Shown here: piece by piece, positions 3,454-17,605 of the stretch
Layout: each line of letters opens with the position of its first letter
Position numbering within the stretch: position 1 is the stretch's first letter
From: an uncultured delta proteobacterium
GTDB lineage: Bacteria; Desulfobacterota; RBG-13-43-22
Reading direction: 5' to 3'
Length of the DNA: 18,459 nucleotides
NCBI GenBank assembly: GCA_963711835.1
Contig: CAVQFQ010000024.1
Span: forward strand, 1-18,459
Made by a program: the position numbers and the translations under genes
The notes under the pieces: generated by a model
Seen by the model: the letters and a program-made list of their open reading frames with translations, nothing else
Told to the model about the DNA's origin: nothing
Database searches by the model: none

Positions 3454-3533
3454 TTCAAGACACCCGGATTATTCGGTCAAGAAAATGGTAAAGTTCAAGT
3501 GCTGAGGGAACTAATAAAGCGAATGCATTTTTT

Positions 3534-3634
3534 TCAGCGCAAAGACGCGAAGGACGCAAAGAGGAAAAATATCTCTCTTGGCGGGCTCTGCGTCTTGAGC
3601 GAATCACGCCATGGGCGTGACGAGCGGGCGGTGA
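3534..3634. repeat. Intergenic palindromic repeat, copy 2 (REP/MITE-like)
   Basis: Shares AAGGACGCAAA, CTCTGCGYCTYGARCGART and GACGAGYGGGCGGTRA with copy 1. Internal hairpin TCACGCC-ATG-GGCGTGA at 3604-3620. Confidence 0.7.
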
Positions 3635-5041: not shown

Positions 5042-5989
5042 ATGGGGCAAAATTTATCTTTTGGAAAACGTCTGTCCCAAAATGGGATTAGTCGTCGTGA
5101 TTTTTTAAAGTTTTGCGGCATCATGGCCGCTACCCTGGGGCTGCCGGAATCTTTTGTACCGAAAATAGCCCAGGCCTTAAGCGCCGCGGTCCGGCCGCCT
5201 GTTGTCTGGCTTGAATTTCAGGACTGCACGGGCGATACGGAATCTTTCCTCAGGGAGCCGACCATCATCAGCCTGCTGCTGGAAACGGTGTCCCTGGACT
5301 ACCATGAAACCCTGATGGTGCCTTCAGGCGCCTTGGCGGAACAGTCCCGTATCGATACCATCCAAAATTATCCCGGCCAGTATATCTGTATCGTGGAAGG
5401 GTCCATCCCGACCGCCAGTAACGGCGTTTACTGCACTATCGGCGGCCGCTCGGCCCTGTCCATCGCCCAGGAGGTCTGTGGTAACGCCCTTATGACCATT
5501 GCCGTGGGCACCTGCGCCTGGGACGGAGGCATCGCCGCAGCCGTTCCCAACCCCACCGGCGCCATGGGCGTCAAGGACGCCCTTCCTGGGCTGACCAATC
5601 TCATCAATCTGCCCGGCTGCCCGGTGAATGCCTATAACATTGCGGCGACCCTCGTTTACTATCTTACGAACCAACAATGGCCCCCGACCGACAGTCAGAG
5701 GCGCCCCATTTTCGCCTATGGGGAGGAAATCCATGAAGAATGCCCGCGCCATGACCATTACGAAGCAGAACGTTTTGTTCTGGCCTGGGGAGATCAAGGG
5801 CACAGGAACGGCTGGTGCCTGTTTAGAATGGGCTGCAAAGGGCCAAGAACGCGAAACAATTGTCATACGGTTAAATGGAACGGAGGCACCAACTGGCCCG
5901 TCGGGGCCGGCCATGGCTGCATCGGCTGCGCTACGGCCAAATTTTGGGATACCCTGACGCCTTTTTATCAGGCCCTGCCGGGCGATTAA
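5042..5989 (+). CDS. Group 1 [NiFe]-hydrogenase small subunit, Tat-exported, no C-terminal membrane anchor
   Basis: Tat motif SRRDFLK. Proximal cluster ligands QDCTGD, GTCA and PGCP. Distal HEEC and WCLFRMGC. Medial NC...WPVGAGHGCIGC, where the Pro indicates [3Fe-4S]. Ends FYQALPGD without a TM helix. Confidence 0.95.
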   Translation: MGQNLSFGKRLSQNGISRRDFLKFCGIMAATLGLPESFVPKIAQALSAAVRPPVVWLEFQDCTGDTESFLREPTIISLLLETVSLDYHETLMVPSGALAEQSRIDTIQNYPGQYICIVEGSIPTASNGVYCTIGGRSALSIAQEVCGNALMTIAVGTCAWDGGIAAAVPNPTGAMGVKDALPGLTNLINLPGCPVNAYNIAATLVYYLTNQQWPPTDSQRRPIFAYGEEIHEECPRHDHYEAERFVLAWGDQGHRNGWCLFRMGCKGPRTRNNCHTVKWNGGTNWPVGAGHGCIGCATAKFWDTLTPFYQALPGD

Positions 5990-5999
5990 GAGTAACTTA

Positions 6000-6310
6000 T
6001 TGGTATCGTTCAAAAGTTGTGGCATTAAATTTCTGATACCCGATGGAAAGGGACCGGGGGTCTTGATTTCAAGGATTGTCCGCCAAAACGCCGGCAGCCT
6101 GAACCCGGGCAGGAAGTTTATAAGGGGTTTAGAAACAGGCCAACACCAAAGCGATTTATCGTCTTGGGTGAATGCCCGGCTTCCAACCAACTTAGAAATT
6201 CGGGCCGGGTTGGGGCTACGGATTACCTTTCGGACAACCTTGAAATCAAGACCCCCGGTCCCCAAGTCAGGCAATAATACGCCAGTGTTATAACTTTTGA
6301 ACGTTACCAA
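6000..6310 (+). repeat. Approximately 310-nt nested inverted repeat (rod-like hairpin) between the hydrogenase subunit genes
   Basis: 6000-6026 pairs with 6284-6310, 6050-6082 with 6231-6262, and 6096-6108 with 6205-6217. Apical hairpin at 6144-6170. Confidence 0.9.
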
Positions 6311-6339
6311 ATTATTAAGAAATGAAATAAGGAGCAGTT

Positions 6340-8106
6340 ATGCCGAAAGTTTTTTTACCTTTAATCATGCAGAATCCGCAGGTGACCTCCCAGCGAATCG
6401 TCTTGGACCCGATCACCCGCATTGAAGGCCACTTGCGCATTGAGGTTCAGGTGGATAACGGTTACGTCACCGACGCCTGGAGCTCGGGGATGATGTTCAG
6501 GGGGCTCGAACTGGTGCTCAAAGGCCGCGACCCCCGCGATGCCTGGCTCTTTGCCCAGCGTATCTGCGGGGTTTGAACGACCGTTCATGCTATCTGCTCC
6601 GTGCGGGCAGTTGAAAACGCCTTGGGCATCGTCATACCGGACAACGCCCGGATCCTGCGCAACCTGCTGGAAGGGGCCCAGTTCATCCAGGATCATGTGA
6701 TCCATTTTTACCATCTCCATGCCCTGGACTGGGTTGATATTGTCAGCGCCCTATCGGCTGACACCAATGCCACCAGCCTGCTGCAACAGTCCGTCTCAAG
6801 CTGGCCCAACTCCAGTCCGGCTTATTTTCAAACCGTCAAGAACCGCCTGACAAGCTTTGTCAACAGCGGGCAACTGGGGCTTTTTGCCAACGGCTACTGG
6901 GGACATCCGGCCTATAAACTGCCGCCGGAAGCCAACCTGATGGCTGCGGCCCATTATCTCGAGGCCCTGGATTTCCAGCGGGAGTATATTAAATTTCACG
7001 CCGTGCTGGGCGGCAAAAATCCTCATCCCCAGACCTATCTGGTAGGCGGCATGGCCATTCCCATGGACCGGACCAGCACCTGGTCCATCAATGACAATAC
7101 CATCGCCCAGCTCCGAACCATGTCGCAGACGGCCCTGAACTTTGTAACCCAGGTCTATATCCCGGATCTTTTGGCCATTGCTTCCTACTATAAAGATTGG
7201 GCCGGACTGGGAGCCGGACCGGGCAACTATCTGTCCTACGGGGATTGGCCGGCCGGCCCTCAGGGAGGGTATTCCTGGGGGAATCAATGGCTACCTCGAG
7301 GACTGGTCTTTAATAAAAACATCGCTTCCGTACCGCAAGCCCTTGACCCCAACCTGATCGGCGAATATGTCAGCCGTTCCTGGTACAGCTATAGCGGCGG
7401 TGACGCCTTGCCGAAAAATCCGGCCCAGGGAGAAACGGTTCCCAGCTATACCGGTCCTCAGCCGCCTTTCGAAAATCTGAATACCGACGGAAAATACTCC
7501 TGGCTCAAATCGCCGCGATACAACGACGCCCCCATGGAAGTAGGACCGCTGGCCCGGATGCTGGTAGCTTACGCCGCCGGGCACACTCAGGTACGGCAGG
7601 AGATCAACAATGTTCTGGCCACCCTGGGGCTGGGGGCTGCGGCCCTGTTCTCAACCCTGGGGCGCGTGGCGGCCCGGGGTGTTGAAACCCTGCTGGCGGC
7701 TCGGAAGATGACTGACTGGATTACTGAACTGGAGGTCAACCTCAATAGTGGCAATCTGATCATTCATGAGTCCTCGAAATGGAATCCCGCCTCCTGGCCG
7801 GCTGATGCCCAGGGCTGGGGGGCCACCGAAGCGCCCCGCGGTGCTTTGGGCCACTGGATCCAGATCAAGAACGGGAAAATCGAAAACTATCAGGCCGTGG
7901 TGGCCACGGTCTGGAATGGCTCCCCCCGGGATGGAAAAGGGCAGCGCGGCGTCTGGGAAGAGGCCTTGATCGGCACGCCTATAGCGGATCCGGAAAGGCC
8001 GGTAGAGGTGCTGCGCACCATTCACTCTTTCGATCCCTGTATGGCCTGTTCAGTGCACATCGTGGACGGGCGGGGCCGAGAAGTGACCCGTGTACGCGTT
8101 GACTGA
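6340..8106 (+). CDS. Group 1 [NiFe]-hydrogenase large subunit (588 codons) with in-frame TGA at codon 79 (candidate selenocysteine)
   Basis: ORFs 6340-6576 and 6601-8106 share a frame and read DPITRIEGH...QRICGV(TGA)[16 protein letters not shown]...[10 protein letters not shown]...[12 protein letters not shown] plus a 15-aa cleavable tail. RBS AAGGAG at 6329-6334. Confidence 0.9.
6582..6619 (+). promoter_or_regulatory. Candidate bacterial SECIS element
   Basis: Upper stem CTGC[T]CC-GTGC-GGGCAG (6594-6610) with a bulged U and a G-initiated loop beginning 25 nt after the TGA. Possible lower pairing between CGTTCA and TGAAAACG. Not scored with a model. Confidence 0.5.
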
Positions 8107-12569: not shown

Positions 12570-12863
12570 TTAGAACGCCTTGGGTTCTTCAGGAAGTTGA
12601 GCACTATGCCAGACAGCAACAATCCAGACGGTTTTTTCTTTTATACGGTAGAAGAAACGATAGGGATTTACGATAACTTCACGAAATTGAAGATCAGGAA
12701 ACTCCGGCAAGATCCTGCCTGATCGCGGAAATTTTCGAAGCCTGGTTAAACCCTTTTCCGCCTTGCGCCGGAAAGTGATCGCCGCTGTTGGATTCTCACG
12801 GTAGATATAAGCCATGGCTGCGAGAAATTGATTTCTCCCCGAAGGAGTGAAAAGAACTTTCAA
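12570..12863 (-). CDS. Type II TA toxin, RelE/ParE family
   Basis: MKVLFTPS...YIYRENPTAA...LRKFPRSGRILPE...REVIVNPYRFFYR...IVAVWHS. Overlaps the antitoxin stop by 4 nt. Confidence 0.88.
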   Translation of the reverse strand: MKVLFTPSGRNQFLAAMAYIYRENPTAAITFRRKAEKGLTRLRKFPRSGRILPEFPDLQFREVIVNPYRFFYRIKEKTVWIVAVWHSAQLPEEPKAF

Positions 12864-13141
12864 ACCTTCGACCCTTTCAGCACAGAATCGGCTTCGGCAA
12901 GAACTTCCTCGAGACCATACCCTATCCCCGCCGCGATCTCTTTTTCACCACGGGCGAGAAGACGCAGGAGTTCCACTTCATGCTGGGAATGTTCATAGGC
13001 TTCCATGCTGACCATTACCGCCGCCGCCCGACCTCTTTGGGTAATGACCAGAGGTTCCCGGGAGGCGGTTACACGCTTAAGGATCGTTGTGGCATCCTGC
13101 CGAAGATCGGTAATCGGTATGATATTAGGAATTTTAGCCAT
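12860..13141 (-). CDS. Type II TA antitoxin, Phd/YefM family
   Basis: IIPITDLRQDAT..LKRV...EPLVITQRGRAAAVMVSMEAYE. AGGAGG RBS. Confidence 0.9.
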   Translation of the reverse strand: MAKIPNIIPITDLRQDATTILKRVTASREPLVITQRGRAAAVMVSMEAYEHSQHEVELLRLLARGEKEIAAGIGYGLEEVLAEADSVLKGSKV

Positions 13142-15062: not shown

Positions 15063-15560
15063 TTAATGTTTAAGTTCAGCAAATTTCAAAAGAGCGTTAA
15101 TACGGGAAAGAGCGAGTTCTCTAATATTCTCCTCATATCTAAAATTCCCGTGAGTGGCGTATTGTCGAAAAGTATAATTGCCCATAAGTTTGTCATCACC
15201 TGTATATGTTTTCCATGCCTTCTCTATTTCTATCCTATGGGCTTTGCACAGGAATCCATCTTTAAAAATGATAATGGCGGCTTCATGTTTGTCTGTTGCA
15301 GCGCTGAGAACTTCGGGAATATCCCGACCAGCACGATCAACGGCATAAAACCGGTCAATGAATCTAATTTCATCAATAAAGGATATTCGAAAGTTGGTGG
15401 CAGCTTTGTTGAATTCCTGCCTTCGCATAAGGTCAATGGCGTTTTTATGAGTCATTTTGATAAGGACTTTAGAAAAATAATATGTTAAGGGTCCGGCAAG
15501 AATAGCCCCGATAATAGCGCCACCAACGCCAATAATCGCTCCAATAATCGTGTCCGTCAT
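15063..15560 (-). CDS. Integron cassette gene, hypothetical protein with N-terminal TM helix (165 aa)
   Basis: AAGGAG RBS. Hydrophobic IIGAIIGVGGAIIGAILAG. Lies between attC 15639-15703 and the intron-interrupted attC. Confidence 0.8.
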   Translation of the reverse strand: MTDTIIGAIIGVGGAIIGAILAGPLTYYFSKVLIKMTHKNAIDLMRRQEFNKAATNFRISFIDEIRFIDRFYAVDRAGRDIPEVLSAATDKHEAAIIIFKDGFLCKAHRIEIEKAWKTYTGDDKLMGNYTFRQYATHGNFRYEENIRELALSRINALLKFAELKH

Positions 15561-15638
15561 CTCCTTTATGGTGCCTTTCTTGGTGTTGGAATATTCGCTT
15601 TAATTTTTTATTTAGTTTTTGGACTATGGTATTATTTT

Positions 15639-15703
15639 ACACAACGTCCAAGCTAACCGGCGGGCCGCTTTACGGCGCGTCCGAGTTGAGCGCCGTGTTA
15701 GGC
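15639..15703 (-). mobile_element. Integron attC site (65 bp)
   Basis: Minus strand: R'' GCCTAAC, ACGGC, L'' GCTCAACT, central hairpin, L' GTTAGC, TTGGAC, R' GTTGTGT. Confidence 0.88.
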
Positions 15704-16524
15704 TCCGATGGACCTGTTATGGCAACAGGCATCTTTAGCCTACCTGGCAAGCAGCAAACTATGATTTGAATGTCGGTATTATCTGAAAGCTCTAGCCTAT
15801 GCGATCGAAGAGGTAGCGCGGTTAATTTTTCAGGCAAAGGTGTGACTAAATAAGGACTTCCATGGGGGAAACCAAGTTCACCACCCAAATAACATTCAAA
15901 ACCCTTTGGGCCAACAATTAACCCAAAGTGCAGAAACCATTCATTGAAGGGAATCGGATGCTCCTCATTTAGAGAAACAATGGGGAACTTCGCCCCTTCT
16001 CGTGCCTTATGAAATACTTCGCGTCTGCGTTGACTATCGCTAGGTGGAGAATCAACAACAATCTTGGTCTCCTGTTTCACAAGCCGCATCACATGAGCAT
16101 CAGCTACACTTATTCCTAACCACAAAACCCTGTTTTTATCCAGCGGCAAAGTTCTTGGGCTGCCCAAGTGGCCTTTAGAGTGCCTGGAAGTTACATGCCA
16201 TTTAGACCGGTCTTCTTCGAGAGATATGTGATCAAAATCGAATGATTGATGCCATTGCAAAGACTTGCCCTGAAATCCTTGAATTTGATCAAAGTCATTA
16301 ATAAAGCCTGGGAAATATATGACTCTGTTTCCCGCCGACTGGACAAAAACACCGAGCCATCGCAGCGTAGCTGATGTGTCTTTGAAAAAACACATGCAAA
16401 GATTTAAAAAAGGCTTTCCTTCCTTGAATAGCTGACTGACTGCATTGGCGAGGGGGGTGCTGGTGTCAGTGTCGCAACCGGGGACACCATAGCCCATTTT
16501 CCAGATTAACTGAATCTTGTCCAA
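15670..16524 (-). CDS. Integron cassette gene, hypothetical protein (284 aa); stop codon lies inside attC
   Basis: Long ORF filling the cassette. TTG start with GGAG upstream. No motif recognised. Confidence 0.75.
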   Translation of the reverse strand: MDKIQLIWKMGYGVPGCDTDTSTPLANAVSQLFKEGKPFLNLCMCFFKDTSATLRWLGVFVQSAGNRVIYFPGFINDFDQIQGFQGKSLQWHQSFDFDHISLEEDRSKWHVTSRHSKGHLGSPRTLPLDKNRVLWLGISVADAHVMRLVKQETKIVVDSPPSDSQRRREVFHKAREGAKFPIVSLNEEHPIPFNEWFLHFGLIVGPKGFECYLGGELGFPHGSPYLVTPLPEKLTALPLRSHRLELSDNTDIQIIVCCLPGRLKMPVAITGPSEPNTALNSDAP

Positions 16525-16552
16525 ACCGTACTCCGTTGCTATCGGTAGTAGA

Positions 16553-16608
16553 GCCTAACGGCAAGTTCACCGCGTGGCGAAGCCATCCGGTGAAACGATT
16601 GGTTATGT
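16553..16608 (-). mobile_element. Integron attC site (56 bp)
   Basis: Minus strand: R'' ACATAAC, CAATC, L'' GTTTCACC, GGATGGCTTCGCCACGC, L' GGTGAAC, TTGCC, R' GTTAGGC. Confidence 0.9.
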
Positions 16609-16615
16609 GATTTTG

Positions 16616-17605
16616 TCATGGATACAACTCGATAGATGGTTCATTCTTCATTACGTGTAATGGCAATGTCTCTTGTGGCTTCAAGGCATAGAACTCCCAT
16701 TCCTTTTTAAATTCATCACTTGCCGGGGGAGTCTTGTACACCTCGTTGAAGTCCGAAGCCATAAGATCTAAGTAATCTCTCCTTGTTGTTTGATAATATT
16801 GAGTGGCTGTTGTCAGCCGCGCAGAGTCGGACCCTTCTGGCACCGCAAAGGCAATAAAGTATTTTGCGGAGATCGGACCAAAATAGCCTTGGTGCTTCAG
16901 GTGTGATGACCGATACAGGACAATATTTTGAATAAGCGCCTCTGGAAATTTTGTTAGCCACCGCTTGGCATGAATCTTTAGTGTACTGATGTCAAGATTC
17001 TTAAAGGTCTCCGAATTACCTTCGTTAAAGGTTTCGTGCAAAGATGGAGTGGCAAGCTGTGCACTTGTCTTCTGTATTTGGCCTTTCAATGATTCAATTT
17101 GTTCCTTACCAGCTTTTCCGTCTGTCATGATGCTCATTTCAGATCTCATGCGATCAAGAGCTTCTTGCTCAGATATCTTATTCCCTTTTGTGTCTTTAAG
17201 TATATGTTTTGAGTTACATCTCGGATCGCAGCAAAAGAAAACTGAAGGGTCGGTATCTGAGCTTGAGTATTTGAGGGGCTTTCCACAATTCAAGCATCTC
17301 ATTTTCGAATTTGTGTCCCAAAGGACATGGAATTCTTCCCGGTACTCAGGGTCAGGTTTCGATAACGGAACTGCAGTCCTCCTATGCAAATAAATAAGTG
17401 ACAGCAGAAAGAAAAGCAGCAAACCCGCGGCGATCCATAAGGGAGTTGGCAAAAGCATTATGATCTTGAATCGCGACCATAGGGTTTTTGAAAAAGTCCA
17501 GATACCGCCAAGCATTATGGCTATAGCACCGATGACCATTCCTATAATAGCGGAATGCAAATCGGAGAACAGTTTCTTCAGATACTCTTTAACAAGGCTT
17601 GCCAT
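16616..17605 (-). CDS. Integron cassette gene, hypothetical membrane protein with two TM helices and a Cys4 zinc-ribbon-like motif (329 aa)
   Basis: Two N-terminal hydrophobic segments and CLNC...CCDPRC. The ORF stops 7 nt before attC R''. Confidence 0.8.
   Translation of the reverse strand: MASLVKEYLKKLFSDLHSAIIGMVIGAIAIMLGGIWTFSKTLWSRFKIIMLLPTPLWIAAGLLLFFLLSLIYLHRRTAVPLSKPDPEYREEFHVLWDTNSKMRCLNCGKPLKYSSSDTDPSVFFCCDPRCNSKHILKDTKGNKISEQEALDRMRSEMSIMTDGKAGKEQIESLKGQIQKTSAQLATPSLHETFNEGNSETFKNLDISTLKIHAKRWLTKFPEALIQNIVLYRSSHLKHQGYFGPISAKYFIAFAVPEGSDSARLTTATQYYQTTRRDYLDLMASDFNEVYKTPPASDEFKKEWEFYALKPQETLPLHVMKNEPSIELYP

Follow-up and report, generated by a model that had tools for sequence, protein, structure and literature searches.

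A hairpin element with ISH6-type ends, very probably a MITE, lies between the hydrogenase subunit genes of an uncultured delta proteobacterium

Results

The hydrogenase operon and its spacer

We have analysed a stretch of 18,459 nucleotides (hereafter, the window) from the genome of an uncultured delta proteobacterium (G000; 3.9 Mb, 89% complete, 6.4% contamination), in which the two subunit genes of a [NiFe] hydrogenase are separated by a long hairpin:

5042..5989, + strand: host gene, Tat-signal [NiFe] hydrogenase small subunit
6340..8106, + strand: host gene, group 1-type [NiFe] hydrogenase large subunit with an in-frame TGA at codon 79 (RICGV-U), likely selenocysteine

The stop codon of the small-subunit gene (TAA) occupies positions 5987-5989, the ribosome-binding site (RBS) of the large-subunit gene (AAGGAG) positions 6329-6334, and its ATG starts at position 6340; the hairpin had been placed between this stop codon and this RBS in the original prediction, and the coordinates agree. 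All of the stems that had been listed there are present: the outer stem (6000-6026/6284-6310) contains 22 Watson-Crick pairs, 4 G-U pairs and 1 mismatch, i.e. 26 of 27 positions are paired; the long stem of the core consists of 25 Watson-Crick pairs out of 25 (6050-6074/6238-6262) and, beyond the bulged A6075, of 7 pairs out of 7 (6076-6082/6231-6237), which makes 32 pairs in total; the stem 6096-6108/6205-6217 is paired at 12 of 13 positions; the apical hairpin (6144-6170) has a folding energy of -8.3 kcal/mol. The stop codon and the RBS are both located outside the stem, and the pairing probabilities of the RBS are mixed and uninformative.

Folding of both strands confirms that the hairpin is real, with an energy of -156.4 kcal/mol for the + strand of region 5990-6330 (z -13.2; 0 of 100 shuffles are as stable) and of -156.8 kcal/mol for the minus strand (z -11.9). 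Since both strands fold equally well, the hairpin reflects the inverted repeat in the DNA rather than a feature of either strand. The Rfam search that had been suggested for the hairpin returned nothing over the element, either at the gathering score or at E values up to 10, and the 97-aa ORF that runs across the element (6000-6293) has no match in Pfam. The scan for promoters and terminators yielded one of each, which equals the chance expectation. We have also considered and rejected a coding remnant, as the core has no 3-base periodicity and only 15 open frames occur in 44 core representatives read in 6 frames.

None of the 23 measurable homologous operons contains the element, and the core profile has no match in loci L031-L057. 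The spacer in other operons, from the small-subunit stop codon to the aligned large subunit, is 6-101 nt long (22 measurable of 24 large-subunit loci), with 37 nt and 47 nt in the closest homologues, G009 (73-75% identical) and G002, respectively; the spacer of the window, after subtraction of the element and one duplication, measures 35 nt. No base-exact empty-site allele was found.

The TGA (6574-6576) is located at the second Cys of the RxCGxC motif, a predicted metal-bridging ligand, and is followed by a SECIS-like hairpin at about 6594-6610. A TGA occurs in 11 of 25 distinct homologous stretches, and the same hairpin is found 15-17 nt downstream in 11 of these 11, compared with 1 of the 14 Cys forms; G000 also encodes tRNA-Sec(TCA) and selB. 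Judging from the sequence, the TGA likely specifies selenocysteine. Such a variant is rare but not without precedent: two Group 1 sequences of the N-terminal CXXU type have been reported earlier, according to an excerpt of PMC13582414. The other measurable TGA-type operons (L031-L037, L039, L049 and L056) have no element, which weakens the link to UGA read-through. In one homologous locus (L055, G007:C26), the small and large subunits form one open frame with a Pro/Gln-rich linker, where a Cys replaces the TGA, the same downstream hairpin is present and the frame is broken near residue 331 of the large subunit. The large subunit of the window has an unusual N-terminal extension (6340-6390), which is also seen in G002, in G009 and in the linker of the fused G007 form.

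Elsewhere in the window, a short intergenic repeat occurs in two copies (2629-2657 and 3532-3560, 79% identical), which we take to resemble the REP-like units of Desulfobacterota genomes; two small overlapping ORFs on the minus strand (12570-13141) resemble a Phd/YefM antitoxin and a RelE/ParE-type toxin; three minus-strand ORFs of 165, 284 and 329 aa (15063-17605), located in AT-richer DNA, have no Pfam match above the cut-off and may form an island.

Anatomy of the element and its target duplication

The hairpin can be divided into the following parts:

6002..6308, no strand: very probable non-autonomous element (MITE), 307 bp, with ISH6-type ends (shell type A) and the shared hairpin core
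5994..6001, + strand: left target-site duplication, 8 bp, AACTTATT, which resembles the ISH6 target consensus AANATNTT given in an excerpt of PMC3942029
6309..6316, + strand: right target-site duplication, 8 bp, AAATTATT, identical to the left copy at 7 of 8 positions
6002..6024, + strand: left terminal inverted repeat, 20-22 of 23 positions identical to the ends of five full-length ISH6 elements
6286..6308, - strand: right terminal inverted repeat, 19-21 of 23 positions identical to five full-length ISH6 elements
6046..6265, no strand: hairpin core, ~220 bp, which shells B, C, D, E and further ones also contain; it can lie either way round within a shell
6050..6082, + strand: left arm of the long inverted repeat of the core, 32 Watson-Crick pairs and one bulged A
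6231..6262, + strand: right arm of the long inverted repeat of the core, partner of 6050..6082

The build is thus layered, with shell ends of ~45 nt enclosing a core of ~220 bp that has a 33-bp inverted repeat of its own. The limits that had been assigned to the hairpin (6000-6310) hold for the fold, but the true element extends over 6002-6308, and positions 6000-6001 and 6309-6310 belong to the target duplication. On the + strand, the right end reads C-Y-N-F-stop at 6286-6300, much as the ORF of the ISH6 transposase, which overlaps the end of the IS, finishes in C-H-N-F-stop.

The duplication is seen across copies with the same shell. In 16 paired A copies, a subset, as the pairing of ends missed many ends, the identity of the flanks peaks at 8 bp and offset 0, with a mean of 0.89. 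Among the 28 A copies that have a core, the duplication is identical at 8 of 8 positions in 12 copies and at 7 of 8 in 10 copies, i.e. 22 of 28 reach at least 7/8; one copy, probably mis-paired, scores 0/8. The consensus of the A-copy duplications is AA-T-T-N-A-T-T.

Relation to ISH6 insertion sequences

ISH6 is described in an excerpt of PMC3942029 as group p-MULT 2 of the Mutator superfamily, with duplications of 8-9 bp and target AANATNTT; the same excerpt lists a member, ISDesp5, from an uncultured Desulfobacterium. The 23-bp terminal repeats of the window match those of elements L059/L076 at 22/23 and 20/23 positions, and the comparison with five full-length elements gives 19-22/23, with identity at background level beyond the ends. 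Scanning genome contigs for the end motif returned at least 117 stretches, which correspond to at least 42 distinct end-bounded elements in other genomes; the matches listed comprise 9 elements of 1.5-2.0 kb with a transposase-like ORF and 33 elements of 162-421 bp without one. The ORF of L081, the one full-length element that was tested against NCBIfam NF041731 (ISH6 family transposase), scores 463.8 bits, above the cut-off of 240. Partner elements of this kind point to a Desulfobacterota-like host.

No ISH6 transposase was found in G000 and 20 genomes of its family (0 of 21; the best E value of a relaxed tblastn search is 2.0), nor were there matches to PF00872 (IS256) in G000 or to PF06782 (UPF0236) in G000, the latter model being likewise without any match in the control genomes, which makes its result uninformative. 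As G000 is 89% complete, the mobiliser may have been lost or may be unassembled; 1 of 56 contig ends in G000 carries parts of the element. The end pattern of the B shell, searched across the order, matches in G000 and G015 only (2 of 21).

The core is absent from the 9 full-length ISH6 elements among the matches listed, and 28 of the 33 short ISH6-ended elements among these matches carry other hairpin modules. At least four other hairpin cargoes are seen in the ISH6-ended MITEs of other genomes (L058, L065, L069, L094, L111, L120, L122, L127, L129, L160, L167 and others), one of which occurs in both orientations (L120 compared with L127); the small hairpin of L111/L122/L160 is also located inside the full-length elements L059 and L076. 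Some arms of these other cargoes resemble a DnaA box.

Copies of the element and their distribution

A BLAST search, which had been proposed as a check for further copies, finds 149 loci in G000; with a profile built iteratively from the central part, there are 150 hits, of which 119 are at least 150 nt long, and the near-full cores number 118. Together with its ends, the repeat takes up about 46 kb, i.e. ~1.2% of G000. Of 20 genomes from the same family, 9 have related copies, all of them from genus g4, and none of 20 other families has any; the core pattern occurs in 7 of the 401 phylum genomes, each belonging to the family of G000, and in 90 metagenomic stretches, and has 0 matches in viral contigs. 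A literature search at listing level found no publication on this core/shell repeat family.

Between co-directional genes lie 66 of the 110 copies that were classified by crude longest-ORF calls (8 of the 118 were dropped, as they lie within an ORF, at an edge or at a distance from any gene). Divergent gaps are in weak excess (30/110 vs 437/2373, p=0.024), to which we give no weight, and the orientation of the core with respect to host transcription is mixed. Near-identical pairs of core and flank are located on different contigs of G000 (C17:356215/C27:8477 and C21:25611/C1:52), which suggests duplicated strain contigs and copy counts that may be a few too high. One B-shell copy with a core (C4:371122-371450) is located directly behind the RNase III gene (C4:370444-371094), which is probably a coincidence. 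The window itself contains a core-less D-type shell at about 914-1051, collapsed to a short perfect hairpin (about 962-1000); a near-identical core-less D shell with the same flanks (C5:104780-104917) may reflect a duplication or a mixture of strains.

One core in several shells

When the 118 near-full cores are sorted by shell, 37 are B-B, 28 are A-A, 16 are C-C and 15 are D1/D2, the rest being partial or untyped. Shells A and B have duplications of 8 bp, and shell C duplicates TTAA. Flipped cores occur in typed copies of every one of these shells (A, 3/23; B, 8/34; C, 3/16; D, 7/15). These shell types are met again in 88 distinct cores of other records, which come from few metagenomes or genomes, may include this organism or its close kin and are not independent.

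In the core tree, the cores group by shell, but the B clade has the clade of the hydrogenase copy as its sister, and a B-clade core is found in one A shell. Recombination between copies explains this exchange of cores between A and B, not the first capture. The core is also found in an ISH6 shell with an unrelated inner sequence, as the hydrogenase copy and L077 are identical at 3-7 of 25 positions past the terminal repeat. Core-bearing shells are commoner than core-less ones; in the latter, the junctions vary and fall at short G/C microhomologies, suggesting that the core was deleted secondarily.

Pairing in the arms and the question of RNA selection

The original prediction read the G-U pairs as a sign of selection on the mRNA strand, which the wider comparison does not bear out: in addition to the equal folding of the two strands, the arms of all cores contain 3366 Watson-Crick pairs, 42 G-U pairs and 47 A-C pairs, and the mRNA strand of 64 tandem copies has 27 G-U compared with 19 A-C (p=0.30). 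In the absence of a strand preference and with G-U and A-C in balance, the suggestion that the element has been selected to tune the subunit ratio is not supported either. In the hydrogenase copy, 2 of the 4 G-U pairs result from C>T changes private to this copy, at positions 6288 and 6289 (C in 6/6 and 5/6 sister copies, respectively). The terminal repeats of the 28 A copies do contain more G-U than A-C on the sense strand of the core (44 vs 19); as the A copies are related and 10 of the 14 tandem ones have their core antisense to the host transcript, this excess is not due to mRNA selection.

The covariation analysis, proposed originally for orthologous operons, was conducted on 44 core representatives with less than 88% identity. 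The arms of the long inverted repeat do covary: they provide the top-scoring columns, which are Watson-Crick in 35/38, 39/43 and 37/42 cases, with almost no G-U. The other high scores are not base-pair-like; the interior of the core has conserved short motifs, and no helix covariation was found there in the 44 representatives. A conserved cis-regulatory RNA of hydrogenase operons is not supported, either by conservation (0 of 23 operons) or by covariation of the strand-specific, G-U-tolerant kind.

Junctions in sequencing reads

The read evidence consists of contigs of related strains; in no public run are as many as half of the words of the operon present. Contigs with about 90-95% identity bridge the right junction in all four DNA runs, which may represent one campaign; contigs at the left junction enter the element by 25 nt (three runs), short of the 31-letter standard, and the right junction alone was counted. 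The insertion seems thus to be present in related strains and to have persisted for some time, which is still compatible with a later co-option. The read depth over the element, being the sum for all copies and organisms, is uninformative on expression.

Regarding the RNA runs, X12 and X23 have no piece across either junction among the contigs listed. In X8, one contig of 217 nt (depth 9) joins position 5998 to 6321, a skip of 322 nt, which is 7 nt longer than the element with one duplication (315). This contig has at least 10 substitutions in common with the element-bearing DNA contigs of X3 and X4, and differs from them at 5962, 6335 and 6447; the common substitutions suggest, from three strains and an unrooted comparison, that it is more likely to have lost the element than never to have had it. 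A hairpin between 8-nt direct repeats is a described substrate for skipping by reverse transcriptase, known as 'falsitrons', according to an excerpt of PMC8240250. By our estimate, a skip of the reverse transcriptase has somewhat less than an even chance of accounting for the join and a deletion in the strain is a substantial possibility too, an ancestral empty allele with an additional indel is improbable, and a true excision from RNA would be a rare outcome.

Discussion

A probable insertion of mobile DNA

The hairpin is a gene-less repeat of 307 bp with ISH6-type ends and a flanking duplication of 8 bp, and we regard it with good confidence as a MITE, which an ISH6 transposase likely inserted in trans into a spacer of originally ~35 nt. 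Every feature with a clear result places it among the ISH6-type MITEs, namely its ends, its AT-rich 8-bp duplication and its being short, transposase-less and multicopy. A fold-back MITE was one of the readings offered in the original prediction, and it is the one that has stood up, through the dispersed copies with target duplications and the absence of the element from 23 of 23 measurable homologous operons. What speaks against it is that no ISH6 transposase was found in the 21 genomes and no base-exact empty site in a relative, that the core is missing from the 9 full-length ISH6 elements listed, and that short motifs in the interior of the core are conserved in 44 divergent representatives.

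In the mechanism that we propose, the ISH6 transposase would insert the element in trans, duplicating an AT-rich 8-mer; recombination at the DNA level, or template switching between the arms, would keep the core arms matched and would also flip or delete the core; and the core may pass between shell types by recombination or gene conversion among the many copies. The insertion has likely been tolerated because the stop codon and the RBS are located outside the element. The rod likely folds in the operon mRNA, where it could become a substrate of RNase III as a side effect, as with the Correia elements of Neisseria; the rnc gene is present in G000, and incidental cutting of the mRNA is plausible.

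Alternative explanations

A MITE could have been co-opted by the operon, so that RNase III cuts the rod and uncouples the mRNAs of the small and large subunits, in a ratio that offsets inefficient selenocysteine read-through. The long perfect stem and the rnc gene would suit such a role, as would a large subunit that likely needs selenocysteine, the right junction seen in related strains (4 DNA runs) and the cutting of Correia elements by RNase III in transcripts, which is described in an excerpt of PMC10969869; the other measurable TGA-type operons do without the element, though, the hydrogenase copy shows private C>T decay as an ordinary copy does, the 66 of 110 copies between co-directional genes make the site not special, and a related strain has an RNA contig without the element, all of which leads us to consider co-option improbable. 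We regard as more improbable still that the element is removed from the mRNA as an intervening sequence that is cut out and re-ligated, restoring a short spacer. The X8 contig that joins 5998 to 6321 would be its product, being kin to the element-bearing X3/X4 contigs (at least 10 substitutions) and the sole cover of both flanks there among the contigs listed; against this, the join is one contig from 1 of 3 RNA runs and is known from RNA data alone, the skip is imprecise (322 nt vs 315) in a strain that differs from X3/X4 at three positions, and the hairpin with 8-nt direct repeats has the geometry for reverse-transcriptase skipping that an excerpt of PMC8240250 describes. DNA-level microhomology deletions of these elements are, moreover, common. 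Fold-back sequences can also arise in assembly, and no contig listed spans the whole element; the arms are imperfect, however, the interior is not palindromic, the 118 near-full copies have distinct flanks and target duplications, and contigs bridge the right junction in every one of the 4 DNA runs, which leaves an assembly chimera with hardly any probability.

The origin of the core is a separate question, compatible with the MITE reading. The core may have been an independent mobile or structured module that targeted, or was captured by, IS ends and helped the shells to spread, which we consider possible, if doubtful. Shells of at least five types contain it, which differ in their ends and in their duplications (8 bp in A and B, TTAA in C), it has entered ISH6 shells of unrelated inner sequence (as in the comparison with L077), shells with it outnumber those without it, and 28 of 33 short ISH6-ended elements among the matches listed carry other hairpin modules; yet we found neither a core with a target duplication of its own nor a transposase with ends of the core type, no core could be confirmed outside a shell, and the core pattern is limited to one family (7 of 401 phylum genomes) and absent from viral contigs. 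A bolder version, to which we give rather little credence, would make the core a hitch-hiking module, a "parasite of parasites", that repeatedly entered the ends of different IS families within one bacterial family and whose mini-elements outspread the empty shells; its perfect stem might let the element drop from, or be cut from, the mRNA, so that insertions in operon spacers would be nearly harmless.

Under the MITE reading, the hairpin of this hydrogenase operon should be read as a recent insertion of mobile DNA and not as an evolved regulator, and cDNA reads that skip a rod of this kind can be mistaken for splicing. MITE shells of different ends and duplications have one invertible hairpin core in common, and other ISH6-ended MITEs carry other cargoes; if the cargo aids mobility or limits the harm to the host, this would be relevant to the origin of bacterial MITEs and to their rise to about 1% of a genome. 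New in this analysis are the comparison of operons, the test for G-U bias, the evidence from reads and the variety of cargoes.

Comparison with known systems

Intervening sequences that are excised by RNase III are known in bacterial rRNA. The element resembles these and the reverse-transcriptase falsitrons (excerpt of PMC8240250) in that the base of a long stem draws the flanks close to each other, in its falsitron geometry and in that one cDNA-derived contig skips it; it differs in being a dispersed repeat, located in an mRNA spacer, with no ligation mechanism indicated and a skip that is not repeat-precise.

With the ISH6 insertion sequences, the element has in common the terminal repeats, identical at 19-22 of 23 positions to those of full-length elements, one of which has been shown to encode an NF041731 transposase, and the C-terminal codons of the transposase, which are kept in its right end. 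The 8-bp duplication of an AT-rich, AANNNNTT-like target agrees with the excerpt of PMC3942029, and ISDesp5 is likened to the element by the family description in that excerpt, not by its sequence. Unlike these insertion sequences, the element has no transposase, and its interior is the hairpin core, absent from the 9 full-length elements listed.

The Correia elements duplicate TA. In an excerpt of PMC10969869, Correia/NEMIS of Neisseria and ERIC/IRU of enterobacteria are described as stem-loops with more than 100 intergenic copies, inversions and the potential to be an RNase substrate when co-transcribed, in all of which they are like the element; unlike them, it has other ends, an 8-bp target, a much longer rod and one core in several shells, and its cutting by RNase III is only potential. 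At most, the element would work in the way that a Correia element does.
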